Shown here: positions 5,071-21,239 of the stretch, piece after piece | Numbering within the stretch: the first letter of the stretch is position 1 | How the letters are laid out: each line of letters starts with the position of its first letter | Assembly: GCF_000008665.1 (NCBI RefSeq) | Contig: NC_000917.1 | Span: 2,100,001 to 2,132,000, forward strand | Origin: Archaeoglobus fulgidus DSM 4304 | GTDB lineage: Archaea; Halobacteriota; Archaeoglobi; Archaeoglobales; Archaeoglobaceae | DNA length: 32,000 nt | Reading direction: 5' to 3' | Notes under the pieces: generated by a model | What the model saw: the letters and a program-made list of their open reading frames with translations, nothing else | Databases searched by the model: none | Told to the model about the DNA's origin: nothing | Translations under genes and position numbers: made by a program

Positions 5071-5340
5071 TAATTTGTTTAAGGCTTCTGAAAAGTCGTT
5101 TACGGATTTTTCTTCGAATAAGATGATTCAGATTTTGTTCCAGATCGTTCCATGTAGAAAGTAGGTGAAAGTTAAGGATTTGTTAGGGGTAGGAAAGCTG
5201 AGACATGTTTCTCCTTTTAGTTAGCTGATAAAAGATTCTTTACCTTACTTAGATTGATCAGATGTTGATCAAGAGCATCGACTTCAATGATGAATTTGCT
5301 CGGAATTAATTTATGGTTAAGTTCATAAATCTTGAACTTA

Positions 5341-5525
5341 TCACCCCAGAATTGCATACGATATTGACTCTGTCAGCTTTTTGAAAGCTTTAGCAATTGT
5401 CTCCTTCAGTTCTTCTATACTCGGCGAGATATTTCTGAAACGAACCTTTTAACACTCTTCCAGACTTTTTCAATCGGATTCAGATCGGGAGAGTAGGGAG
5501 GGAGATAAACCAGCAAAATGTTCAT
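5341..5525 (-). pseudogene. C-terminal remnant of an IS630/Tc1-mariner family transposase, truncated and frameshifted
   Basis: The minus strand reads MNILLVYLPPYSPDLNPIEKVWKSVKRFVSE, the classic LPPYSP.LNPIE motif around the DDE glutamate. It stops at 5415-5417. A second frame continues SPSIEELKETIAKAFKKLTESISYAILG* to 5341. The N-terminal ~80% of a transposase is absent. Confidence 0.7.
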
Positions 5526-5684
5526 ACTTTTCTGGACTACAGAAAGCAAAAAACTTCAGAAAAAAGAGCTGAGAAGCTGTATAAAGTCTTAGGCAGGGTA
5601 AAGAAGTCAATTTGGAGAGTTTGAGAGAAGATTTCACGAACTCGCATGGTAATCTTTATTAACTACTACTCCAAAAAATGACCT

Positions 5685-5912
5685 ATGAAAGTAAAAGTTA
5701 CTAGGAATTTTCAGATTACTATACCTGCCGAAGTTAGGAGAAAGATGGGATTAAAGCTGGGCGATGTGCTTGAAGTTGAATACAACGAGGAGAAGGGAGA
5801 GGCCATTATAAGGAAGCTCGGTGGAGAGAGAAGGAAGCTGAAAGCGGGAAGAAAGCTTACGCCGGACGAGATAGAGGCGCTGATAGCTGAGGGAATGGGC
5901 GATAACTTATGA
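5685..5912 (+). CDS. vapB: AbrB/SpoVT-type antitoxin (VapB-like)
   Basis: MKVKVTRNFQITIPAEVRRKMGLKLGDVLEV is a swapped-hairpin AbrB/SpoVT signature. The gene overlaps the downstream PIN gene by 4 nt (ATGA). Confidence 0.8.
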   Translation: MKVKVTRNFQITIPAEVRRKMGLKLGDVLEVEYNEEKGEAIIRKLGGERRKLKAGRKLTPDEIEALIAEGMGDNL

Positions 5913-6313
5913 AAGCCGTCATAGATACAAATGTTATAGTCTACGACACCTTTGAAGACAGCGTTTTTCATCAGGAAGCCATGCAACTCCTCGATAGAAT
6001 TGATGTGTGGGTAATCCCTACGATAGTTATTCACGAGTATGTTTGGGTCCTCAAATCACTGAAGGTGGACGTGAAAGAAATCAAATACAAAGTGGAGGAG
6101 TATCTTAACCACTATAAAACGAAAATGGTTTCAGAAAATAAGCAAATCGTTTTGTCAGCACTGGAAAGAATTGTAGGTGGGGGATTAAGCCTTTCAAGGT
6201 ACAACGACGAGTTGATACTTGCTGTTGCTGGTAGGGAAAAAATAAGCCTTGCAACCTTCGACGAGAGGTTGAGAAGGCAGGCGAGAGCAAGAGGTGTAGA
6301 AGTAATTCCATAG
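5909..6313 (+). CDS. vapC: PIN-domain ribonuclease toxin (VapC-like)
   Basis: AVIDTNVIVY, IHEY, YNDELIL and TFDERL give the four conserved acidic positions of PIN domains. The gene is paired with the upstream antitoxin. Confidence 0.8.
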   Translation: MKAVIDTNVIVYDTFEDSVFHQEAMQLLDRIDVWVIPTIVIHEYVWVLKSLKVDVKEIKYKVEEYLNHYKTKMVSENKQIVLSALERIVGGGLSLSRYNDELILAVAGREKISLATFDERLRRQARARGVEVIP

Positions 6314-6329
6314 GAGAGCTGGGACAATT

Positions 6330-7205
6330 TTATTTCATAACCGGCAAATCGTTCAAAGTTCTGCAAACTATCCCTTCATTTTTCAGATGCTCCAGTAGTC
6401 TTTTTGACGGCTTTCCGTGGTAAAAAAGGACCTCCTCTGGCTCGCAGTGGTCTATCATCTCAAGTATCCCCCTGTAATCGAGATGGTCGCTGAGGGTTAT
6501 CCTCGGCCACCTGTAGAACTTATGGGCGGTGAGGATGTATCCACCACCGTAAAGAGGAAGGTTCCGGGGTGAGGCGATGAGAGGGCCGTCAGAGGGTTTC
6601 AGGCCGACTGCACTGCAAATCCTCGCAATCTTCTCCTCTGCAGAGAATCCAAACCCATCCTTACTCAGAATTTCCGCCACTCTCTGAGCCTTTCCGATGG
6701 GGTAAGCGCCAAAAACCGCTTTGTTTGATGAAGCGACCTTCAAAAGCTTCTCCACCTCTTCTTCAAAGATGTGGGAAGGGTGGCCGTAGGTTGCTTCGGT
6801 GACAAGAATTTTGCATTTCGGCAGCTTTGAGTAGTCCTTAACGTCTCCGGTAATCAGAATGTCGCTATCCTGAAAATAAAAAGCTGCGGAACCGTGCATG
6901 TGGTAGGTGGGGTAGGTTTTAATTTTTGTATCGCTGAGCCTTATCCTGCTCCCAACCTCAAAAGTAACTCCGGAGAATACTTTGCCTGTGCAGGCCTCAA
7001 GTATCGCCGCACTCTCTCTGCTCGCTACTGCCCTGCTGTTGTCCATGTTCCTCTGGCCGTAGTGGTCTGTGTGGGCGTGGGTGATGAGGTTCATCCCGTA
7101 ATCTGCCGGGGAGGTATCGACGTGGTAGTGCTGTCCCTCAATGCAGAGAGAAAGGTGGGGTCTGCAACCCCTACCGTATTTCCTTCTGTAAAACTCAATC
7201 TGCAC
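6330..7205 (-). CDS. Metallo-beta-lactamase-fold hydrolase, beta-CASP-like short exonuclease type
   Basis: ITHAHTDHYG (HxHxDH), TYHMHGSAAF, ITGDVKD, LVTEATYG. Confidence 0.6.
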   Translation of the reverse strand: MQIEFYRRKYGRGCRPHLSLCIEGQHYHVDTSPADYGMNLITHAHTDHYGQRNMDNSRAVASRESAAILEACTGKVFSGVTFEVGSRIRLSDTKIKTYPTYHMHGSAAFYFQDSDILITGDVKDYSKLPKCKILVTEATYGHPSHIFEEEVEKLLKVASSNKAVFGAYPIGKAQRVAEILSKDGFGFSAEEKIARICSAVGLKPSDGPLIASPRNLPLYGGGYILTAHKFYRWPRITLSDHLDYRGILEMIDHCEPEEVLFYHGKPSKRLLEHLKNEGIVCRTLNDLPVMK

Positions 7206-7225
7206 CTTTTCGCATTACCGGCAAG

Positions 7226-7235
7226 ATTTATAATA
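7226..7235 (+). promoter_or_regulatory. TATA-box-like element for the 7258 gene (leaderless spacing)
   Basis: ATTTATAATA is centred about 27 nt upstream of ATG 7258. No Shine-Dalgarno sequence lies between them. Confidence 0.35.
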
Positions 7236-7257
7236 CCTTCCCCCGATTATCACAGGA

Positions 7258-7743
7258 ATGAATCTGAGTGAGTTTGAAAGAGAGGTTAAAGAGCTGTTCG
7301 ATGCCGACCTTGTGGAGAGGGCAAAGAACCTCAAGAAGAGCGGGAACATATTCAACCCAATCTTCTACATCTTCTTCACGAGAATCGTGGAGTTATCGGC
7401 GATTATTAACGATATGGTGCTGCCAAACAGATATGAGCTGGAGGAGCTTTTCAGAACGCGAAAGGACTTCCTGCAGATAGACTACGGCACCATTGGAGAG
7501 ACTATAAGGAGGGCTTGGCTCTATGAGAGGGAGAGGGGTGTGGAGTTCACCTTCAGCAACAGCGTTGAGGACATGCTCTACCTGCTCTACAGGATGGGGA
7601 AGCTGCAGGGCAAGCTTGACAGAATCATAATGAAGTACGCTGAATGGGAGAAGAACAAGCTGGCTGAGCTTTACTTCACCATTCTAAAGATTCTGCTGGA
7701 GCTTGAGGACAGGATAAACAGGGAAATAAGAGAAGAGGCCTGA
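7258..7743 (+). CDS. Hypothetical helical protein
   Basis: A 161-aa ORF with coding-like composition. I recognise no motif. Confidence 0.4.
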   Translation: MNLSEFEREVKELFDADLVERAKNLKKSGNIFNPIFYIFFTRIVELSAIINDMVLPNRYELEELFRTRKDFLQIDYGTIGETIRRAWLYERERGVEFTFSNSVEDMLYLLYRMGKLQGKLDRIIMKYAEWEKNKLAELYFTILKILLELEDRINREIREEA

Positions 7744-7784
7744 ATCAAACCCCAAAAGAATTATGAATTTTCCAAAAACCCGAA

Positions 7785-9107
7785 TCAAACCCTTCCAAGC
7801 CTCTCAAGAACCCTCTTCTTTTTCTCCACAGCCTTCATCGCTGCTTCATCCACCTTCCTGCGCATTTCCTCGAAGTCGGGCGGTGTTTCCTCCCCAACAA
7901 CTTTCTTGAGGGGTGTGTATGCCGACTCCCTGAACCTCGGCTTTATCTCCCTAATCTCTCCACCCTCAACGACAAAAGCTCCTTTCCTTCCCTTCTCAAC
8001 CCAGCCAACCTCCTCAATCCTTACTCCTGCCTCTTTCACAGCACTTTTAACAAGCTCTGCCGTCTCAGCATCACATACAACCATCAAAGAGTCGATTGAG
8101 ACACCCATGAAGTCAATTTCAAGCTCTTCGAGCATTTTGAGCACCTTCGGATTCACACAGTTCCTGACCTTGTCGTAGTCGAAAATAAGGGCTAAACCTG
8201 AAACCTTGGCTATCTCCTCAGCATCCCCCCTTATTCCTCCGTTGGTGACATCGCTCATGGAGTGGATTCTTCTGACGAGGTCGGCTTTGAAAATGGCCCT
8301 CACAGCCTTGATAAAGTCAAGGTTGATTGTCTCCTCAACAATCTCGTGCATGCCGAAGTAAATGGCAGTTGTCGCAACAGTCCCTCCTCCAGCCCCCTCA
8401 GTCAGCAAAATTACGTCTCCATCCCTCACATTTCTGCGGGGGGTTATGTGCTTTGAAACCCCAACGCAGCCAACTCCGCCCGTCATCCTCTCCCCTATGA
8501 CCATGTCTCCTCCAATTCTCAGCGTGCTCCCGCTCACCAGCGGAACTTTTACAGCTTCGCAGACTGCTGTTATACCGGCTATGTGGTCGAAAATCTTGCT
8601 GACATCTCCATCATCCGCAATGTGGATGTCGGAGAAAACAGCTACAGGCTCAGCGCCCATGACGTAAACATCCCTCATTGCTGCTCTCGTTACGTGAAAT
8701 CCGGCAATAAAGGGAAACTCGCTCAGCCTCGAATGGATGCCGTCAATTGCAACGGAGATGTAGAAGTCCCCAAACTTCACCACTCCCGCATCATCCAAAT
8801 CCTTCGAAGAAACAACCGCCCCGGAGTCACCTATAACCTCCGCAATCTTCTCGTGAACGTAGAAGTCTCCCCTACCCCTCGAACCGACTCCAAACTCACC
8901 CATAGTGACTCCTGAGCGGTAGTAGTCCAGAAGCCAGTTTGTTTTGCCGTAGGCGTTCTTTACTTCAACGATAACGGCCTCAGCCCATCGCATTGCCCTT
9001 TCAAGGCTCCAGTTTTTAATTTCGGCTATTCTCTCCGCCAGGACCTTTTTAACCTCGTCTTCACCCATTTTTTCGAGCATCCTTCTCGCGTAGCCTTCAA
9101 TGTCCAT
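7785..9107 (-). CDS. PurM/AIR-synthase-related superfamily protein (HypE/ThiL/SelD-like, COG2144 type)
   Basis: LDDAGVVKF and AIDGIHS in the N-domain and a glycine-rich GGVGCVG / TEGAGGGTVAT segment are typical of PurM-like ATP-dependent enzymes. Confidence 0.6.
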   Translation of the reverse strand: MDIEGYARRMLEKMGEDEVKKVLAERIAEIKNWSLERAMRWAEAVIVEVKNAYGKTNWLLDYYRSGVTMGEFGVGSRGRGDFYVHEKIAEVIGDSGAVVSSKDLDDAGVVKFGDFYISVAIDGIHSRLSEFPFIAGFHVTRAAMRDVYVMGAEPVAVFSDIHIADDGDVSKIFDHIAGITAVCEAVKVPLVSGSTLRIGGDMVIGERMTGGVGCVGVSKHITPRRNVRDGDVILLTEGAGGGTVATTAIYFGMHEIVEETINLDFIKAVRAIFKADLVRRIHSMSDVTNGGIRGDAEEIAKVSGLALIFDYDKVRNCVNPKVLKMLEELEIDFMGVSIDSLMVVCDAETAELVKSAVKEAGVRIEEVGWVEKGRKGAFVVEGGEIREIKPRFRESAYTPLKKVVGEETPPDFEEMRRKVDEAAMKAVEKKKRVLERLGRV

Positions 9108-9209
9108 CGAAGCAATTTTTCCTGAGTGTTAATAAGGTTGACTGAGGCAATCCTTACACTCCAGGAAAACTCACGAAACATTAAATAGCTCAGGAAAGCG
9201 TTAACCATT

Positions 9210-9974
9210 ATGGGTGTGCTTAGAGTTGTTAACCTCGGAGTAAAGGTTGGTGAGAAAAAGATACTCAAAAACGTTAATCTCTTCATCAAAGAAGGGGAGA
9301 CCTTTGTGCTATTCGGCCCAAACGGGTCGGGCAAATCGACCCTTCTCAATGCCTTGATTGGGAACCCGTCGTACAAGGTTACAAGCGGTCGAATCCTGTT
9401 CAAAAAGGTGGATATCACAAATTTGCCCACCAACGAGAGGGTAAAGCTTGGAATTGGCATCGCTTTTCAGAATCCACCAAAAATAAGTGGGGTAAAGCTG
9501 ATTGACGTGCTGAGGTACTGCGCGAGAGTTGGTGGTTACGGAGAGGACAAAATCCTGGAGCTTGCGGAGAAAATGAGGATGACGGACCACCTGTATAGGG
9601 AAATCAACATGGGCTTCTCAGGAGGAGAGGTTAAGAGGTCAGAGCTGCTGCAGCTAATGCTGATGAATCCCGACCTGGTTCTTCTCGATGAGCCTGACAG
9701 CGGCGTTGACCTTGAGAATGTTGCATTAATCGGTGAGGCAATCAGAACTCTCCTCGAAAGGGATAAGGAAGAGGGGGAGAGGACGAAGTCCGGGATAATC
9801 ATAACCCATCAGGGACACATTCTGGATTACGTCGATGCTGATTATGCGGCCATTCTTTACAATGGCAGGATTGCCTGCATAGGCGAGCCGAAGGATATTC
9901 TGAACCAGATTAGAAACCACGGGTATGAGGGGTGTTTGGCGAAATGTCTGGCGAATATGGAGAACTCGGAGTAG
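9210..9974 (+). CDS. sufC: Fe-S cluster assembly ATPase SufC
   Basis: Walker A GPNGSGKST; signature FSGGEVKRSELLQL; Walker B LLDEPDSGVD; H-loop ITHQ. It is followed by an overlapping SufB/D gene. Confidence 0.85.
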   Translation: MGVLRVVNLGVKVGEKKILKNVNLFIKEGETFVLFGPNGSGKSTLLNALIGNPSYKVTSGRILFKKVDITNLPTNERVKLGIGIAFQNPPKISGVKLIDVLRYCARVGGYGEDKILELAEKMRMTDHLYREINMGFSGGEVKRSELLQLMLMNPDLVLLDEPDSGVDLENVALIGEAIRTLLERDKEEGERTKSGIIITHQGHILDYVDADYAAILYNGRIACIGEPKDILNQIRNHGYEGCLAKCLANMENSE

Positions 9975-11041
9975 ATAAGGAAAGGCTGAAGGAAGTCGGA
10001 ATTGAGCTTGACAAGTCCAAGAGGTCGGGAGTTTACCTGCAGGAAGACCAGGATGCTAAGACTTTCTCATCCTTCTTCGAAGGTGTGGAAGTGATGAGCA
10101 TAAAGCAGGCAATGGAGAAGTACGACTGGGTTAAGGACTACTTCTGGAAGATTCTGCGTAAGGATCAGGATGAGTTTACGAGAATGGCCGACACAGAGGA
10201 CGTCAACGGCTACTTCATCCGCTCTCTGCCAGGAGCAAAAGTTGAAATACCCGTGGAGGCTTGCCTTTACCTGAAAAAGGTTGAGAAGCAGAGAGTCCAC
10301 AACATTGTGATAGCTGAGGAAGGTTCGGAGCTCAACATCATTTCCGGCTGCACCTCTCATCCCGGCGTGGCGGGAATGCACATCGGTATATCGGAGTTTT
10401 TTGTTAAAAAGAACGCAAAGCTCTCCTTCACCATGATACACAGCTGGGATACAACTATAGAGGTGAGGCCAAGAACAGCGATAAAGGTGGAGGAGGGTGG
10501 AACCTTCATAAGCAACTACATCCTGCTCAATCCCGTAAAGCTCGTCCAGACCTACCCAACAGCCTATGTGGAGAAAGATGCGACTGCGATATTCAACAGC
10601 GTAATTGTTGCTCTTGAGGGCAGCGTCGTCGATTCTGGATCGAGAGCTGTTTTGATGGGTGAAAACAGCAGAGCTGAAATCATATCGAGAACCATAAGCA
10701 AAGGCGGGAAGATCATCGCAAGAGGACACATCATCGGAGATGCCCCTGAGGTTAAGGGACATCTCGAGTGCAAGGGTTTGATGCTGTCTGAGAGCGGGCT
10801 GATTGACGCAATTCCCGAACTTGAGGCGAGATATCCAAATGTTGAGCTGAGCCATGAAGCTGCCATAGGCAAAATTGCCGAGGAGGGGATATTCTACCTC
10901 ATGTCGAGGGGGCTTAGCAGAGACGAAGCAATTTCGGCGATAGTCAGGGGATTCATGGAAATAGAGATAAAGGGTCTGCCGGAGGCACTTCAGGAGGCAA
11001 TAAGGAGAACCATAGAGATGGCGGAGAGGGACTTGCTGTAA
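9944..11041 (+). CDS. sufB: Fe-S cluster assembly scaffold, SufB/SufD family
   Basis: The C-terminal ELSHEAAIGKIAEEGIFYLMSRGLSRDEA matches the conserved SufB/D HEA.(G/S)..d......YL.sRG motif. The start is taken at ATG 9944 rather than GTG 9932. It overlaps sufC. Confidence 0.8.
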   Translation: MSGEYGELGVDKERLKEVGIELDKSKRSGVYLQEDQDAKTFSSFFEGVEVMSIKQAMEKYDWVKDYFWKILRKDQDEFTRMADTEDVNGYFIRSLPGAKVEIPVEACLYLKKVEKQRVHNIVIAEEGSELNIISGCTSHPGVAGMHIGISEFFVKKNAKLSFTMIHSWDTTIEVRPRTAIKVEEGGTFISNYILLNPVKLVQTYPTAYVEKDATAIFNSVIVALEGSVVDSGSRAVLMGENSRAEIISRTISKGGKIIARGHIIGDAPEVKGHLECKGLMLSESGLIDAIPELEARYPNVELSHEAAIGKIAEEGIFYLMSRGLSRDEAISAIVRGFMEIEIKGLPEALQEAIRRTIEMAERDLL

Positions 11042-11137
11042 TCAGAGAGTACAGCCGTCATCATCGCCACGGCTCAGATCCTGCTAGATTCATCACCTAT
11101 TTTTGGTTGTTAAAGGAGAATTTAAGTTTTTTCTAAC

Positions 11138-13072: not shown

Positions 13073-13619
13073 AGAAGAGGACGCGAGGGACGCCGTAAGA
13101 ATTCTCGTCCTTTCATTTGGCAGAGAGCTGAACGGGATTTTTGGTGACACAGAGCTGGCGAGGGAGCTTTTCTTCAAGTTTTTCTCCATCCACACTGAAG
13201 AGTGCCTTGTGGTTGAGGCTGAGAGAATTATCGGCTTCGCATCCTACTCCTTCAAACAGAGGCTCCCAATCTCCGATTTTCTTAAAAAGGAGCTTGGATT
13301 TGTCAAAGGGCTGAAGTTGTCAATGCTCATCCGCTACCTCTGCCCCAAGCCTAAGAAGGGAAAGGCGGTGATAAACTTCATCGCCGTCTCACCGCTGAGA
13401 AGGAACAGCGGAGCAGGTTCGGCGTTGCTTGAAAAAATCGTAGAAAGAGTGAAGGAGGGTGGGGGAAAGGAAATCGAGTGCTACGTTTCCGTTGACAACG
13501 ACGCTGGCATTGGCCTTCTGACAAAATTTGGCTTTGAAGTTGCCAAAATGCTCGACAACCGCTTTGCGGAAAAAAATTTTGGGGCGAGGCAGTGGTACCT
13601 CATGAGGCTCAAACTTTAA
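13053..13619 (+). CDS. GNAT-family N-acetyltransferase
   Basis: Motif A: FIAVSPLRRNSGAGSALLEKIV (R..G.G/A). It overlaps the aminotransferase gene by 20 nt. Confidence 0.7.
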   Translation: MRVRELREEDARDAVRILVLSFGRELNGIFGDTELARELFFKFFSIHTEECLVVEAERIIGFASYSFKQRLPISDFLKKELGFVKGLKLSMLIRYLCPKPKKGKAVINFIAVSPLRRNSGAGSALLEKIVERVKEGGGKEIECYVSVDNDAGIGLLTKFGFEVAKMLDNRFAEKNFGARQWYLMRLKL

Positions 13620-15304
13620 CCCTGCTTCCTCATCTCCTCTTCCCTGAGAACTCTCCTGAGAACTTTCCCCACAAGAGACTTCGGCAGCTCATCCCTGAAC
13701 TCTACAAGCTTGGGAACCTTGTAAGGAGCAAGCCTCTCCTTGCAGAACTTTATTATGTCTTCCTCCGTCACCTTTCCCTTCCATCCCGGCTTGAGCTCTA
13801 TGAAGGCCTTGACAGTTTCTCCCCTGTAGGGGTCTGGAATGCCAACAACAGCAGCTTCCGCAACCGCTGGATGTTCGTACAACACTTCCTCGATTTCCCT
13901 CGGGTAGATGTTGAACCCTCCAGCGATTATCATGTCTTTCTTCCTGTCCACGATGTAGAAAAAGCCGTCCTCGTCCATTTTCGCCATGTCTCCCGTTAAA
14001 AGCCATCCGTTGATTAGAGTGTTCTCTGTCTCCTCCTTGCGGTTCCAGTAGCCCTTCATTACCTGCGGCCCTCTTATTACAAGCTCCCCCACTTCTCCGG
14101 GCGGGAGGATGTTTCCCTCATCGTCAATCACCACTGCTATCGTGTCGGGATAGGGCAGCCCTACACTCCCCTCCTTATTCAGCCCGTATATGGGGTTTCC
14201 GTGAGTTATCGGCGACGCCTCGCTCAGCCCGTAGCCCTCAGTAATCCTCTTACCCGTAAGCTCCTCCCACCTCCTCTTCACCTCTATTGGCAGCGGAGCC
14301 GCTCCGCTCGTGCACACTCTCAGGGAGCTCAAATCGTAGCCGTTCTCCTCAAGAAGCTTCAGCATCCCGATGTACATCGTCGGCACGGCTGCGAGGGTTG
14401 TAACTTTAAAGGTCTGAATGGCCTGAAGAACCATCGGGTAGTTTCGGGGGTCGGGCATGGGGATAATTGTCGCACCTACAAGAATTCCAACGTTCATCAT
14501 CGTCATCCCGTAGCTGTGGAAAACGGGAAGCATGCCAATCCCCACATCGGCAGAAGAAGCTTTGGGGTCCCAGTTGGCAGCCTGATAGGCATTTGCTACA
14601 ATGTTGAAGTGGGTGAGCATAACCCCCTTGGGGAATCCGGTCGTCCCCCCAGTGTACTGCAGCATCGCAACATCCTCTTTCGGATTTATCTCCGCCCTCC
14701 TTTCAGTCTTCTCAGCCTCCATGACGTTCTTCCACGAGTAAAGCCCCTTTCTCTTCTCAGGCGGGTCGGGCATCGTAGCGCCAACCATGAAGTCCTGAAG
14801 GCTGCAGGTTATTACAGTATCAAGAGTGCCATCGTCAAGCAGCGGAGAAACGTTGGAGTACAGCATATCCATGCAGAACATCGTCTTTGCACCGCTGTCT
14901 TCAGCGAGAAACTTTATCTCTCTCTGAGTGTAGAGGGGGTTGCACTGCACTATGATTCCACCAACTTTCAGAATCCCAGCCATTATTGGGGCAGCATGGG
15001 GAGTGTTGGGAAGGGCAAAGATTACTCTATCCCCTTTCTCAATGCCAATGTCGAAGAGAAATCCCGCAACTTTGTCAGAAGCTTCCTTTGCCTGCCTGTA
15101 AGTAATCTGATTGCCAAAGAATATTGTTCCAACCTTGTTCCCATACTTTTCAGCAGCCATCTCAAGAATCCTGTAAGCGGGCATCACGGGATAATCGAGC
15201 CTGTCCCTCACGCCCTCGTCGTAGTGCTTCACCCAGATTCTGTTTATACCGCTACCATCGGTCTCTCGAATATTTTGCCCCTCAATACCAAGTATCCCAC
15301 TCAT
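13616..15304 (-). CDS. fadD: Long/medium-chain acyl-CoA ligase (AMP-forming, FadD-like)
   Basis: LQYTGGTTGFPKGVMLTH (AMP-binding signature), GYGLSEASP, TGDMAKMDEDGFFYIVDRKKDMI, and the C-terminal PKSLVGKVLRR. Confidence 0.85.
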   Translation of the reverse strand: MSGILGIEGQNIRETDGSGINRIWVKHYDEGVRDRLDYPVMPAYRILEMAAEKYGNKVGTIFFGNQITYRQAKEASDKVAGFLFDIGIEKGDRVIFALPNTPHAAPIMAGILKVGGIIVQCNPLYTQREIKFLAEDSGAKTMFCMDMLYSNVSPLLDDGTLDTVITCSLQDFMVGATMPDPPEKRKGLYSWKNVMEAEKTERRAEINPKEDVAMLQYTGGTTGFPKGVMLTHFNIVANAYQAANWDPKASSADVGIGMLPVFHSYGMTMMNVGILVGATIIPMPDPRNYPMVLQAIQTFKVTTLAAVPTMYIGMLKLLEENGYDLSSLRVCTSGAAPLPIEVKRRWEELTGKRITEGYGLSEASPITHGNPIYGLNKEGSVGLPYPDTIAVVIDDEGNILPPGEVGELVIRGPQVMKGYWNRKEETENTLINGWLLTGDMAKMDEDGFFYIVDRKKDMIIAGGFNIYPREIEEVLYEHPAVAEAAVVGIPDPYRGETVKAFIELKPGWKGKVTEEDIIKFCKERLAPYKVPKLVEFRDELPKSLVGKVLRRVLREEEMRKQG

Positions 15305-17615: not shown

Positions 17616-18374
17616 ATGGATGAAAGGGATGCGCTGAGAATTTCGAGGGAGATTGCAGGAGAGGTCAGAAAGGCCATTGCGTCAATGCCCTTGAGGGAGA
17701 GAGTAAAGGACGTGGGAATGGGGAAGGATGGCACTCCAACCAAGGCAGCCGACAGAGTTGCGGAAGATGCTGCGCTTGAAATTTTGAGAAAGGAGAGGGT
17801 TACGGTGGTTACAGAGGAGTCGGGAGTTTTGGGGGAGGGAGATGTCTTTGTTGCCCTCGACCCCCTCGATGGAACCTTCAATGCTACGAGAGGGATTCCA
17901 GTTTATTCAGTCAGCCTCTGCTTCTCCTATTCGGATAAACTGAAAGACGCCTTCTTTGGCTACGTTTACAACCTCGCAACAGGGGATGAATACTACGCGG
18001 ACTCCAGCGGGGCTTACAGAAACGGGGAGAGGATTGAGGTGAGCGATGCTGAGGAGCTTTACTGCAACGCCATAATCTACTATCCCGACAGGAAGTTTCC
18101 CTTTAAGAGGATGAGGATTTTTGGAAGTGCTGCAACGGAGCTTTGCTTCTTTGCTGACGGCTCCTTTGACTGCTTCCTCGACATCCGCCCCGGAAAGATG
18201 CTTAGAATCTACGATGCCGCTGCGGGTGTTTTTATTGCAGAAAAGGCAGGAGGAAAGGTTACCGAACTTGATGGAGAAAGCTTGGGGAATAAAAAATTTG
18301 ATATGCAGGAAAGGCTCAATATCGTCGCCGCAAATGAAAAACTCCATCCAAAGCTGCTGGAGCTGATTAAATGA
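17616..18374 (+). CDS. suhB: Inositol monophosphatase / fructose-1,6-bisphosphatase family protein
   Basis: VALDPLDGTFNA, the metal-binding E..EES segment (VVTEESG), and WD-type C-terminal motifs. It matches my memory of A. fulgidus AF2372. Confidence 0.85.
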   Translation: MDERDALRISREIAGEVRKAIASMPLRERVKDVGMGKDGTPTKAADRVAEDAALEILRKERVTVVTEESGVLGEGDVFVALDPLDGTFNATRGIPVYSVSLCFSYSDKLKDAFFGYVYNLATGDEYYADSSGAYRNGERIEVSDAEELYCNAIIYYPDRKFPFKRMRIFGSAATELCFFADGSFDCFLDIRPGKMLRIYDAAAGVFIAEKAGGKVTELDGESLGNKKFDMQERLNIVAANEKLHPKLLELIK

Positions 18375-19120
18375 GGGCCGCAGTGGTTTACAAAACCGAT
18401 GGTCACGTGAAGAGGATTGAGGAAGCTTTGAAAAGGCTGGAGGTTGAGGTTGAGCTCTTCAACCAGCCTTCAGAAGAGCTTGAGAATTTTGACTTCATTG
18501 TGAGTGTTGGGGGAGACGGGACAATTCTGAGAATACTGCAGAAGCTGAAGCGCTGCCCGCCCATTTTCGGGATAAACACCGGAAGAGTCGGTCTGCTTAC
18601 CCACGCCAGCCCTGAAAACTTTGAGGTTGAGCTTAAAAAGGCGGTGGAGAAGTTTGAGGTTGAGAGGTTTCCGAGAGTAAGCTGCTCCGCAATGCCCGAT
18701 GTTCTTGCCCTCAACGAGATTGCCGTTTTGAGCAGAAAACCGGCGAAGATGATAGACGTCGCTTTGAGGGTCGATGGCGTGGAGGTGGACAGAATAAGGT
18801 GCGACGGCTTTATTGTTGCAACTCAGATTGGCTCCACAGGCTACGCCTTCTCTGCTGGAGGGCCGGTAGTTGAGCCCTACCTCGAATGCTTCATCCTCAT
18901 CCCCATTGCACCCTTCCGCTTCGGCTGGAAGCCCTACGTGGTCAGCATGGAGAGGAAAATTGAGGTTATTGCTGAGAAAGCCATTGTGGTGGCTGATGGG
19001 CAGAAGAGCGTGGATTTTGATGGTGAGATAACCATAGAAAAGTCGGAATTTCCGGCTGTGTTCTTCAAAAACGAGAAAAGGTTCAGGAACCTTTTCGGGA
19101 AAGTTAGGAGCATAGGTTAA
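18371..19120 (+). CDS. nadK: NAD kinase
   Basis: VSVGGDGTILR (GGDG motif), NEIAV, and IVATQIGSTGYAFSAGGPVV (conserved glycine-rich NADK motif). There is a 4-nt ATGA overlap with suhB. Confidence 0.85.
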   Translation: MRAAVVYKTDGHVKRIEEALKRLEVEVELFNQPSEELENFDFIVSVGGDGTILRILQKLKRCPPIFGINTGRVGLLTHASPENFEVELKKAVEKFEVERFPRVSCSAMPDVLALNEIAVLSRKPAKMIDVALRVDGVEVDRIRCDGFIVATQIGSTGYAFSAGGPVVEPYLECFILIPIAPFRFGWKPYVVSMERKIEVIAEKAIVVADGQKSVDFDGEITIEKSEFPAVFFKNEKRFRNLFGKVRSIG

Positions 19121-19124
19121 ATAT
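19117..19124 (+). promoter_or_regulatory. TATA-box-like element positioned for the H/ACA sRNA
   Basis: TTAAATAT overlaps the nadK stop codon. It is centred about 26 nt upstream of 19146-19147, where the first hairpin begins. Confidence 0.4.
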
Positions 19125-19144
19125 CAGTTTTGACTACTATTATT

Positions 19145-19360
19145 GTCCCCGATCGGGGAAGAGGCAGAGGTGGCAGTGCCGACGATGAAGCTTCTCTGCG
19201 AGCTCGGGGACACACCATGTCGATAGGTCCCCTTAGGAGTGAGGCGAAAGCCTTACGATGAGTATGGGGCAACCCGGACATGGGACAGCCCCCAGAGGTC
19301 AGCCACTCTGAGAGGGCAAAGCCTGCGATGAGGGGTGGTGTTACTCTGGGGGCAGATTTC
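19145..19360 (+). ncRNA. Three-hairpin box H/ACA pseudouridylation guide sRNA (candidate)
   Basis: - HP1: lower stem 19147-19152:19204-19209; upper stem 19160-19165:19190-19195; tandem GA/GA at 19167-68 and 19187-88 with a GAU bulge at 19184-86; ACA at 19210-12.
- HP2: lower stem 19215-19221:19277-19283; upper stem 19229-19235:19263-19269; GA/GA at 19237-38 and 19260-61 with a GAU bulge at 19257-59; 7-bp cap stem with a GAAA loop at 19246-49; ACA at 19285-87.
- HP3: lower stem 19289-19297:19344-19352; upper stem 19302-19309:19332-19339; GA/GA at 19310-11 and 19330-31 with a GAU bulge at 19327-29; AGA at 19354-56.
- In every hairpin the ANA box starts 14-15 nt after the upper stem. Confidence 0.7.
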
Positions 19361-19753
19361 TGCCGTCACGTTTTCGTAAATTTCATCGAAAGTGGGTATC
19401 TTCGGTTTTGTGGATATACTGTCACATACCATCTTGACAAGGTTCGGAATACTGCTGTCTCCCTGATTTTTCTGACCACAGCTGCTGCAGAAGAGTGGTC
19501 TTTCGTGAAGCTGGTAGATGACCCCTCACACTTTGGACCAGGAGGGATGACAGCAGATGGAACTAAGATAGTTTTCTCCAAACACACGGATGGGAGCTAC
19601 GCCACACACTGGGACGAAAAAGTATTTCTGATGGACCTCGAAACCAAGCAGGTAACGAGAGTAACAAGGAACATCTACTTCGACAGCTACCCGACCATTT
19701 CTCCTGAGGGTTCAAAGATTGCGTTCGTTGAGAGCGAACGGTTACAATTTTAG
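19280..19753 (+). pseudogene. 5' fragment (PD40 beta-propeller blades) of the cohesin-dockerin gene, in a different frame from the main ORF; the true start is unresolved
   Basis: It encodes a signal-peptide-like AVSLIFLTTAAAEEW and PD40-type blades (MTADGTKIVFS, TISPEGSKIAFVESE). The frame ends at 19753 while the homologous frame 0 opens at 19719. The first ~80 nt of the ORF overlap the H/ACA hairpins. Confidence 0.5.
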
Positions 19754-21239
19754 ACAAGATACACGACATTACGTTTATGTTGTCAGTCAGTCCAACAACT
19801 GGCAGCAAGGCCGCCACCTCATCGACGACCCCGGCAAATTCTACTTCGACCCGCTGCTGGATGAAAACGGAAACCACATTACTGTCAATTACTGGGTGTA
19901 TTTAGATGACTTCAACTGGCCAAACTTCATCGGGACTTACACAGCTACCGGTTCTGCAATTGGGGGAATAGAATTGGGGAAGTACGTATATGGCCCGGTT
20001 AGATCCCCGGATGGGAGTAAAATTGCCTTCTCGACCGTTCGTGGAGAAGGGGAACAAAGGGTGTCCGAGCTTTACGTGGGTGGTGTAGGTCAACCGCCTA
20101 AGATTATTTACTCCGACAGCGAGGGAAGAGCTGTGAGGCAATTCTCGGTCAGCAACGATGGGAAAGTTGCATTTTACCTTGAGGGAGACAGCAAGGGAAG
20201 AGAAGGAGTTTTCCTCTACCAGAACGGTAACATAATGCTTCTCAACAGCGATTTGCACTTCTGTAACCCGATGATAAGTGGAGACGGTCAGAAGCTCTAC
20301 TGCCTGTACAATGACCTCTTTGAATACAAGTTCTCACTTTACGAGATAGATATCAACGACGGAAGTTATGAGATGCTGGGAACATACAATGTCCATACAG
20401 GCTTATCACTCACGAACAACGATGGAAGCGTAATTGTGTTCAGGGGGTACAACGAAACAAATGGTTTCGGAATCTTCGCACTCGTTAAGGGAGAAGGTGT
20501 GACAATTCCGCCGATGCTCAACTTGGACCTCCAACCTATGCTTCCTCCGAAAACTACCATCATTGCCGGTTCTGCCGAAGCGCCCCAAGGAAGTGATATC
20601 CAGGTGCCTGTTAAAATCGAAAATGCTGACAAAGTGGGCAGCATAAATCTCATCCTGAGCTACCCGAATGTGCTTGAGGTTGAGGATGTGCTTCAGGGCT
20701 CTCTAACTCAGAACTCACTTTTCGATTACAATGTTGAAGGTAATCAAATTAAAGTTGGCATCGCGGACAGTAACGGGATTAGCGGCGACGGTTCGCTGTT
20801 CTACGTAAAGTTCAGAGTTACAGGCAATGAAAAAGCGGAGCAGGCAGAAAACGTTAAAGGTAAACTTAGGGGCTTGGGCCAACAGCTCTCTGAAATCACA
20901 CTCAGAAACTCTCACGCTCTCACCCTTCAAGGGATCGAAATCTACGACATTGATGGGAATTCTGTAAAGGTTGCGACGATAAATGGGACTTTCAGGATTG
21001 TCTCTCAGGAAGAAGCAAACAAGGGAGATGTGAATGGAGATGGAGAAATAAACAGTCTCGACGCTCTGCTTGCACTTCAGATGTCAATCGGGAAGGTTGA
21101 GCCGAACCCTGTAGCAGATATGGATGGGGATGGAAAGGTGCTTGCGAAGGATGCCACTGAAATCATGAAGATGGCAACAGACATGATGATCAGAAGAACG
21201 GCGGAAATTATAAGCCAGAATGGCTTACTGGGTAAGTGA
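19719..21239 (+). CDS. Secreted PD40/TolB-like beta-propeller protein with a C-terminal cohesin (about 20550-21002) and a type-I dockerin (about 21024-21179)
   Basis: PD40 blades: SPDGSKIAFSTVRGE, SNDGKVAFYLE, SGDGQKLYCLY. Cohesin: GSDIQVPVKIENADKVGSINLILSYPNVLEVEDV...GDGSLFYVKFRVTG. Dockerin F-hand pair: GDVNGDGEINSLDALLALQ and ADMDGDGKVLAKDATEIMK. There is no ATG at the 5' end of this frame; it continues the 19280 frame after a frameshift. Confidence 0.75.
   Translation: MRSLRANGYNFRQDTRHYVYVVSQSNNWQQGRHLIDDPGKFYFDPLLDENGNHITVNYWVYLDDFNWPNFIGTYTATGSAIGGIELGKYVYGPVRSPDGSKIAFSTVRGEGEQRVSELYVGGVGQPPKIIYSDSEGRAVRQFSVSNDGKVAFYLEGDSKGREGVFLYQNGNIMLLNSDLHFCNPMISGDGQKLYCLYNDLFEYKFSLYEIDINDGSYEMLGTYNVHTGLSLTNNDGSVIVFRGYNETNGFGIFALVKGEGVTIPPMLNLDLQPMLPPKTTIIAGSAEAPQGSDIQVPVKIENADKVGSINLILSYPNVLEVEDVLQGSLTQNSLFDYNVEGNQIKVGIADSNGISGDGSLFYVKFRVTGNEKAEQAENVKGKLRGLGQQLSEITLRNSHALTLQGIEIYDIDGNSVKVATINGTFRIVSQEEANKGDVNGDGEINSLDALLALQMSIGKVEPNPVADMDGDGKVLAKDATEIMKMATDMMIRRTAEIISQNGLLGK

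Follow-up and report, generated by a model that had tools for sequence, protein, structure and literature searches.

What lies in the G+C-rich gap behind nadK in the genome of Archaeoglobus fulgidus DSM 4304? The gap was analyzed as part of a stretch of 32,000 nucleotides (contig NC_000917.1, positions 2,100,001–2,132,000 of the forward strand), hereafter the window, in whose numbering all positions are given. The gene on the 5′ side confirms that the window is A. fulgidus DNA: over 249 residues, the NadK open reading frame (ORF; 18371–19120) shows 100% identity to the NAD kinase of A. fulgidus whose structure is PDB 1SUW. An earlier note, made from the letters of the window without database searches, proposed that the gap encodes a box H/ACA guide RNA, whereas the six-frame ORF track starts a 157-aa ORF (19280–19753, + strand) inside it. 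The analyses described below led us to conclude that the gap contains a three-hairpin H/ACA small RNA (sRNA) gene, and that this RNA is almost certainly Afu-4, the A. fulgidus orthologue of Pyrococcus Pab40/Pf7/HgcG (Rfam family RF00064).

Family and architecture of the RNA

A comparison of the whole window with Rfam matched RF00064 (HgcG/Pab40, H/ACA) at 19089–19361 on the + strand, with 95.9 bits (gathering score, 77) and an E-value of 4.9e-25. The match covers the full length of the model (positions 1–276 of 276), the first ~56 positions of which represent the 5′ flank. A score above the gathering score over the whole model assigns the locus to HgcG/Pab40, an archaeal three-motif H/ACA sRNA. 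The covariance-model search suggested in the earlier note thereby supports its proposal of a multi-hairpin H/ACA guide with kink-turns (K-turns) of the L7Ae-binding type. The note had also called the RNA unannotated; this may hold for the six-frame track, but the RNA belongs to a described and curated family. According to Muller et al. (2008), Afu4 has three H/ACA motifs, like Pab40, Pf7, and Pho40, and it was Tang et al. (2002) who identified the H/ACA sRNAs of A. fulgidus, using RNomics (PMC2377435). For Toffano-Nioche et al. (2015), Pab40 and HgcG/RF00064 are the same RNA; they also discuss Af4.1, Af4.2a/b, and Af4.3, the last with 23S position 1970 (PMC4652768).

Folding of 19140–19380 with RNAfold gave three consecutive hairpins on the + strand at −110.8 kcal/mol (z = −4.72), and none of 200 dinucleotide shuffles was as stable; the z-score of the minus strand of the same segment was −2.3. 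The 212-nt core (19145–19356) has a G+C content of 61.3%, compared to 47.3% in the window, and is the most G+C-rich stretch of this length in the 32 kb. The hairpins share a common plan composed of a lower stem of 7–10 bp, an internal loop, an upper stem, a K-turn, a short capped stem, and a 3′ ANA box (Table 1). At the apical end of each upper stem, tandem G.A/A.G pairs face a bulge of three nucleotides (GAU), and GATGA is located at 19184, 19257, and 19327. With these GA...GAUGA motifs, all three hairpins fit, at the sequence level, the K-turn expected of archaeal guides (tandem sheared G.A/A.G pairs and a 3-nt bulge about 9–10 stacked layers above the pocket). The ANA boxes start 14, 15, and 14 nt past the pocket-closing pair in hairpins 1, 2, and 3, respectively, and every hairpin thus displays the lower stem, pocket, upper stem, and ANA box at 14–15 nt of an archaeal box H/ACA hairpin.

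These results closely follow what had been read from the letters. The fold reproduced the three hairpins and their shared architecture, the gap after nadK is G+C-rich as described, the GATGA positions were exact, and the ACA, ACA, and AGA boxes were found at the spacing of 14–15 nt given for them. The pockets re-derived here agree within 1–2 nt with those of the earlier note, and the T-runs noted after the third hairpin correspond to the TTT that follows the AGA box. An archaeal H/ACA guide with several hairpins can be recognized correctly from sequence alone, down to its pockets, its K-turns, and the spacing of its ANA boxes. That the hairpins represent more than chance pairing is indicated by the Rfam match in combination with the covariation in relatives.

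Table 1. Elements of the sRNA locus in the window
Feature	Position	Strand	Details
HgcG-family box H/ACA sRNA gene, almost certainly Afu-4	19144..19360, ends approximate	+	RF00064 match; conservation in relatives
TATA-like box TTAAATAT	19117..19124	+	overlaps nadK stop codon 19118–19120
Hairpin 1	19145..19211	+	lower stem 19145–52/19204–11; upper stem 19160–65/19190–95
Hairpin 1 pocket	5′ guide 19153–58; 3′ guide 19198–19203	+	closing pair A19159-U19197, C19196 bulged
Hairpin 1 K-turn	G19167 A19168 / G19187 A19188	+	bulge GAU 19184–86; cap stem-loop 19169–83
ACA box, hairpin 1	19212..19214	+	14 nt past U19197; 19210–12 (ACA) is an alternative ANA
Hairpin 2	19215..19283	+	lower stem 19215–21/19277–83; upper stem 19229–35/19263–69
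Hairpin 2 pocket	5′ guide 19222–28; 3′ guide 19269/70–19276	+	
Hairpin 2 K-turn	G19237 A19238 / G19260 A19261	+	bulge GAU 19257–59; cap stem 19239–45/19250–56, GAAA loop
ACA box, hairpin 2	19285..19287	+	15 nt past G19269; invariant in 9 sequences
Hairpin 3	19288..19353	+	lower stem 19288–96(97)/(19344)19345–53; upper stem 19302–09/19332–39
Hairpin 3 pocket	5′ guide 19297–19301; 3′ guide 19340–44	+	closing pair G19302.U19339
Hairpin 3 K-turn	G19310 A19311 / G19330 A19331	+	bulge GAU 19327–29; cap 19312–26
AGA box, hairpin 3, then TTT	19354..19359	+	probable 3′ end / termination signal
5′ extension of 157-aa ORF	19280..19391	+	spans hairpins 2–3; not a real coding segment

Conservation, probable transcription unit, and the overlapping reading frame

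Contigs of relatives were found through their NadK homologs, and an alignment of nine sequences, the window included, was prepared. RF00064 scored 90–99 bits in eight further Archaeoglobaceae loci. The match lies directly 3′ of nadK in L036, L037, L039/L040, L041, L042, L043, and L046, and in Archaeoglobus neptunius (L038, 6719–6996) it lies 2 kb from nadK, behind an amino-acid permease gene. Around the nadK genes of Geoglobus acetivorans and two other, more distant genomes (L044, L047, and L048), there was no HgcG match; if these genomes have the RNA, it must lie in another place. The RNA is 79–98% identical across the genomes, whereas the NadK proteins encoded there are only 57–86% identical.

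The differences among the nine sequences preserve the structure. When the window-derived structure was imposed on the alignment, 99.2% of the pair cells were standard pairs, and double-sided changes were found at 11 pairs, compared to 1.7 ± 1.2 in shuffles and 0–2 in a control in which the 3′ partners were moved by 1–3 columns. RNAalifold independently found the same three hairpins in the nine sequences, with 13 compensatory pairs; the lower stem of hairpin 3 carries compensatory changes at 5–6 pairs. The compensatory changes in related genomes, which the earlier note had proposed to look for, are thus present at 11–13 pairs. Invariance is concentrated in the functional elements: 38 of 39 positions of the guide pockets (both guide strands of hairpin 1 among them), all 15 K-turn positions, and all six A positions of the ANA boxes are the same in the nine sequences, compared with one of the three ANA middle bases, 32 of 48 positions in the lower stems, and 23 of 48 in the cap regions. 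The other bulge bases vary, and the box of hairpin 3 is AGA, AAA, or ACA among the relatives with ANA being kept. Conservation begins near 19140 and stops right past AGA and TTT, and a T-run follows the third ANA box in eight of the nine sequences. As judged from the aligned sequences, the positions are constrained in the way typical of guide RNAs.

The position of the element raises the question of whether it is transcribed on its own. In all eight distinct homologous loci, an A/T-rich TATA-like box precedes the first stem by 22–30 nt; in the window it is TTAAATAT, starting at 19117, where the earlier note had also pointed to such a box. We presume that TTAAATAT is probably the promoter of the sRNA. 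Because the element lies directly 3′ of nadK in most Archaeoglobus loci and the putative TATA box shares bases with the stop codon of nadK, the hairpins might instead belong to nadK, as a structured 3′ untranslated region (UTR) or a terminator, or to the gene downstream, as its 5′ leader. This interpretation is very improbable. In A. neptunius, the RNA is 2 kb away behind the permease gene and the TATA-like box stands at the same distance although the upstream gene is not nadK, which argues for an independent transcription unit; the downstream genes also vary between the loci. In addition, a match to an H/ACA model, invariant K-turn, ANA, and guide elements, and complementarity to ribosomal RNA (rRNA) would have no role in a UTR.

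We also considered whether the sequence from 19280 onward is the translated N-terminus of a 157-aa TolB/PD40-like protein, with the hairpins being incidental. An ATG at 19280, within the lower stem of hairpin 2, does open the 157-aa ORF, and on several metagenomic contigs from this strain, gene callers have placed the start there. The ORF is not conserved, however: six related loci have a stop in the ATG frame after 12–49 aa, and strain L039 has one after 80 aa. The elements of the RNA, in contrast, are preserved. The substitutions in 19280–19356 are compensatory stem changes, and conservation ends at the ANA box. Among 5.8 billion proteins, the sole homolog of the 157-aa ORF is a 120-aa protein, which starts at a GTG equivalent to 19392 and has a signal-peptide-like N-terminus. 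The window and the ENA contig L001 are without one C between 19458 and 19459 relative to the JGI contig L039. As a result of this 1-nt deletion, the GTG frame of the window ends at TGA 19464–66 after 24 codons, and gene callers resort to the upstream ATG within the sRNA; in L039, the GTG frame continues into a PD40/TolB-like protein. The lack of conservation, the homolog starting at 19392, and the 1-nt deletion together indicate that the extension to 19280 is an annotation artifact, as the earlier note had suspected, and that a coding role for it has hardly any chance of being correct. The 157-aa ORF should accordingly not extend into the sRNA gene, and we flag this as an annotation error. The real start is probably GTG 19392, disrupted in the window strain by the deletion, and the downstream gene appears to be frameshifted in this strain.

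Similar mis-calls are found in other genomes. Spurious ORFs of 44–49 aa (MGQPPEVSHSE...) are called on hairpins 2–3 from the same hairpin-2 ATG at L041 8927–9076 and L042 9017–9151, and such mis-called ORFs are a recurrent error caused by the sRNA. Further downstream, the PD40/TolB-like segment (19280–19753) and a PD40-cohesin-dockerin ORF (19719–21239) form two overlapping or adjacent ORFs, and three are present on L002, which is of the same species. The region 19280–21239 appears to be either a single beta-propeller-cohesin-dockerin gene that frameshifts have disrupted or a genuine arrangement of two genes.

Guide pockets and their predicted targets in 23S rRNA

In the proposed mechanism, an RNA of ~215 nt, probably transcribed from its own TATA-box promoter just past nadK, would bind L7Ae on each K-turn and Cbf5-Nop10-Gar1 on the lower stem and ANA box of each hairpin. 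The two strands of a pocket would pair with the 23S rRNA sequences that flank a uridine. This target uridine and the base after it would stay free of pairing at the pocket top, ~14–15 nt from the ANA box, and Cbf5 would isomerize the uridine to pseudouridine. Binding of L7Ae and Cbf5-Nop10-Gar1 has been reported for Pab40 and other archaeal guides (PMC2377435), and the expression, protein binding, and catalysis assumed here for the A. fulgidus RNA are taken over from published work and from the family in general.

The targets were searched for in a proxy for the A. fulgidus rRNA, namely, the rRNA operon of Haloarcula marismortui (Hm) on plasmid pHMA288 (L045, locus positions 5152–10213). This plasmid was found by a plasmid search with an archaeal-type 16S query; a plasmid search with a helix 69–71 query gave only bacterial sequences as the top matches. 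At least 30 haloarchaeal ‘plasmid’ records in PLSDB carry complete rRNA operons. Every U in Hm 16S and 23S was scanned with all reasonable pocket boundaries. The Hm numbers assume that 23S starts at locus position 7029, and the E. coli equivalents are likewise presumed.

The best match of hairpin 1 was at 23S Hm 2531 (7+7 bp), which we take to be the equivalent of E. coli 2496 in helix 89. Hairpin 2, for which two pocket registers emerged, matched best at 23S Hm 2590 (6+7 bp) and next at Hm 2621 (7+4 bp), presumably E. coli 2555 (the A-loop U) and 2586, respectively. The best match of hairpin 3 was at 23S Hm 1956 in helix 69 (7+5 bp), which we assume to be equivalent to E. coli 1915. The helix 69 of Hm is GGGGGUAACUAUGACCCUC, exactly as predicted from the pocket of hairpin 3. 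Within it, GUAAC-U-A-UGACC forms 5+5 Watson-Crick pairs with the pocket, the 3′ guide GUUAC facing GUAAC and the 5′ guide GGUCA facing UGACC, and U-A remains unpaired in between. The 665-nt gap between two of the proxy matches equals the difference between positions 2621 and 1956, the Haloferax volcanii guide sites of PMC4652768, and this agreement in spacing supports the offset of 7029.

The top sites coincide with published ones. Motifs 1 and 3 of Afu4 have been assigned the targets of Pab40 motifs 1 and 3, namely P. abyssi 23S 2588 and 2016, at which these Pab40 motifs are active in vitro (PMC2377435). For Afu4 motif 2, A. fulgidus 23S 2601 was proposed by Tang et al., and 2632 is preferred by Muller et al. 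(PMC2377435). Af4.3 is assigned to 23S 1970, and A. fulgidus 1970 and P. abyssi 2016 lie in stem-loop 69 (PMC2377435, PMC4652768). The most likely predicted target of hairpin 1 is in helix 89, at the site numbered 2588 in P. abyssi and equivalent to E. coli 2496. Hairpin 2 probably targets A. fulgidus 2601, which is the A-loop U (E. coli 2555), A. fulgidus 2632 (E. coli 2586), or both, and hairpin 3 probably targets A. fulgidus 1970 (E. coli 1915) in helix 69.

Several observations weigh against the assignment of the RNA and its targets. With fixed pocket registers, shuffled guides reached the observed scores in 2–60 of 1000 trials; with free registers they did so in 12, 33, and 30 of 200, and the true guides then scored only modestly higher. 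The complementarity score by itself is therefore weak evidence, and the weight of the target matches comes from their coincidence with published, partly experimentally validated sites. In the search for a bipartite rRNA match, which the earlier note had proposed, the top sites on the Hm proxy fall at the published ones, with shuffles that score only modestly lower. When metagenome contigs were scanned with the corrected hairpin-1 target CTCGCTACCTCGATGTCGGYTC, the 12 matches were all in bacterial 23S; a previous scan of genome contigs with TCGCAN{1,4}CCTCGATGTCGGCTC, a hairpin-1 target in the wrong register, had given 17 bacterial matches and no archaeal one. The literature is split on motif 2 (2601 versus 2632), and 16S 1167 is listed for Af4.1 (PMC4652768), a site that found no support in the Hm proxy search. 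Finally, the identity with Afu-4 rests on organism, family, three-motif architecture, and matching targets, and not on direct sequence comparison.

This last point favors the possibility that the RNA is a genuine HgcG-family H/ACA RNA but a paralog or a strain-specific variant with other targets, rather than the published Afu-4. We give this possibility only a very slight chance. A single three-motif H/ACA sRNA is on record for A. fulgidus (PMC2377435), and on the Hm proxy the pockets yield exactly the target set published for Afu4. Moreover, there is a single HgcG match in the window, and each related locus that has any has one (nine loci). The RNA shares with Afu-4 the organism, the three K-turn H/ACA motifs, and the predicted target set (the helix 89 site, 2601/2632, and 1970), and at this level, short of direct sequence comparison, no difference was detected. 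The organism, the account of Afu4 in PMC2377435, and the target match also support the suggestion of the earlier note that this locus may be one of the A. fulgidus RNAs cloned by Tang et al. (2002). Identification as Afu-4 has little scientific consequence since the RNA, its family, and its targets were published before, and nothing in the data needs a new explanation.

A possible extension concerns hairpin 2, which might be a two-register guide that presents either 2601 or 2632 (A. fulgidus) to Cbf5 through a shift of the closing pair by 1–2 positions. Both registers are the top matches on the archaeal (Hm) 23S, and the bases in and next to the pocket that the two registers require do not vary among the Archaeoglobaceae sequences. 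The literature treats 2601 and 2632 as alternatives and not as dual specificity, and we regard the two-register guide as a rather unlikely, tentative proposal. If it is true, one motif would serve two functionally important sites of the peptidyl-transferase region. The Archaeoglobaceae orthologs collected here could help to choose between the two targets proposed for motif 2.

Comparison with other H/ACA RNAs and further features of the window

The motif order 1-2-3 of Pab40/Pf7/Pho40 (Pyrococcus, Thermococcus) is the same as that of the A. fulgidus RNA. The guide strands common to the HgcG consensus and A. fulgidus are UGCGA in motif 1, GGGNAACCC in motif 2, and GGU(U/C)AG and UGUUAC in motif 3, and the targets predicted for motifs 1 and 3 of the A. 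fulgidus RNA are those of Pab40. The stems, in contrast, differ from the HgcG consensus by compensatory changes; for example, the lower stem of motif 3 is GCCCCCAGAG/CUCUGGGGGC in A. fulgidus and ggCCCGcCcG/cGgGCGGGcc in the consensus. There are two further differences. A K-loop has been described for motif 1 of Pab40, whereas the corresponding motif of the A. fulgidus RNA forms a K-turn topped by a cap stem. Motif 2 of the P. abyssi RNA is redirected to 23S 1932 by a G-to-U change (PMC2377435); its A. fulgidus counterpart retains the K-turn and a pocket of the 2601/2632 type.

Eukaryotic box H/ACA snoRNAs, such as the yeast helix 69 guide, follow a like guide logic, with a bipartite pocket and ANA/ACA 14–16 nt from the uridine; Cbf5/dyskerin is likewise the catalyst, and helix 69 is likewise a target. 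Archaeal H/ACA RNAs differ from them in that they consist of one, two, or three hairpins, all of which carry an ANA box and an L7Ae-binding K-turn or K-loop, and are without the H box and the fixed two-hairpin hinge architecture of the eukaryotic snoRNAs.

Elsewhere in the window, the second most G+C-rich segment (~14090–14400, ~59% G+C) was considered as a candidate RNA and rejected. It has no Rfam or tRNA match and lies inside a 562-aa ORF (13616–15304, − strand), and it is probably just coding sequence. The Rfam scan of the window gave two matches above the gathering score, RF00064 and the C/D-box sRNA sR2 (RF01139). The latter was found at 11040–11100 on the − strand with 47.7 bits (gathering score, 42) and an E-value of 1.3e-07. 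It has recognizable C (GUGAUGA) and D (CUGA) boxes, and the window thus holds two genes for small guide RNAs.

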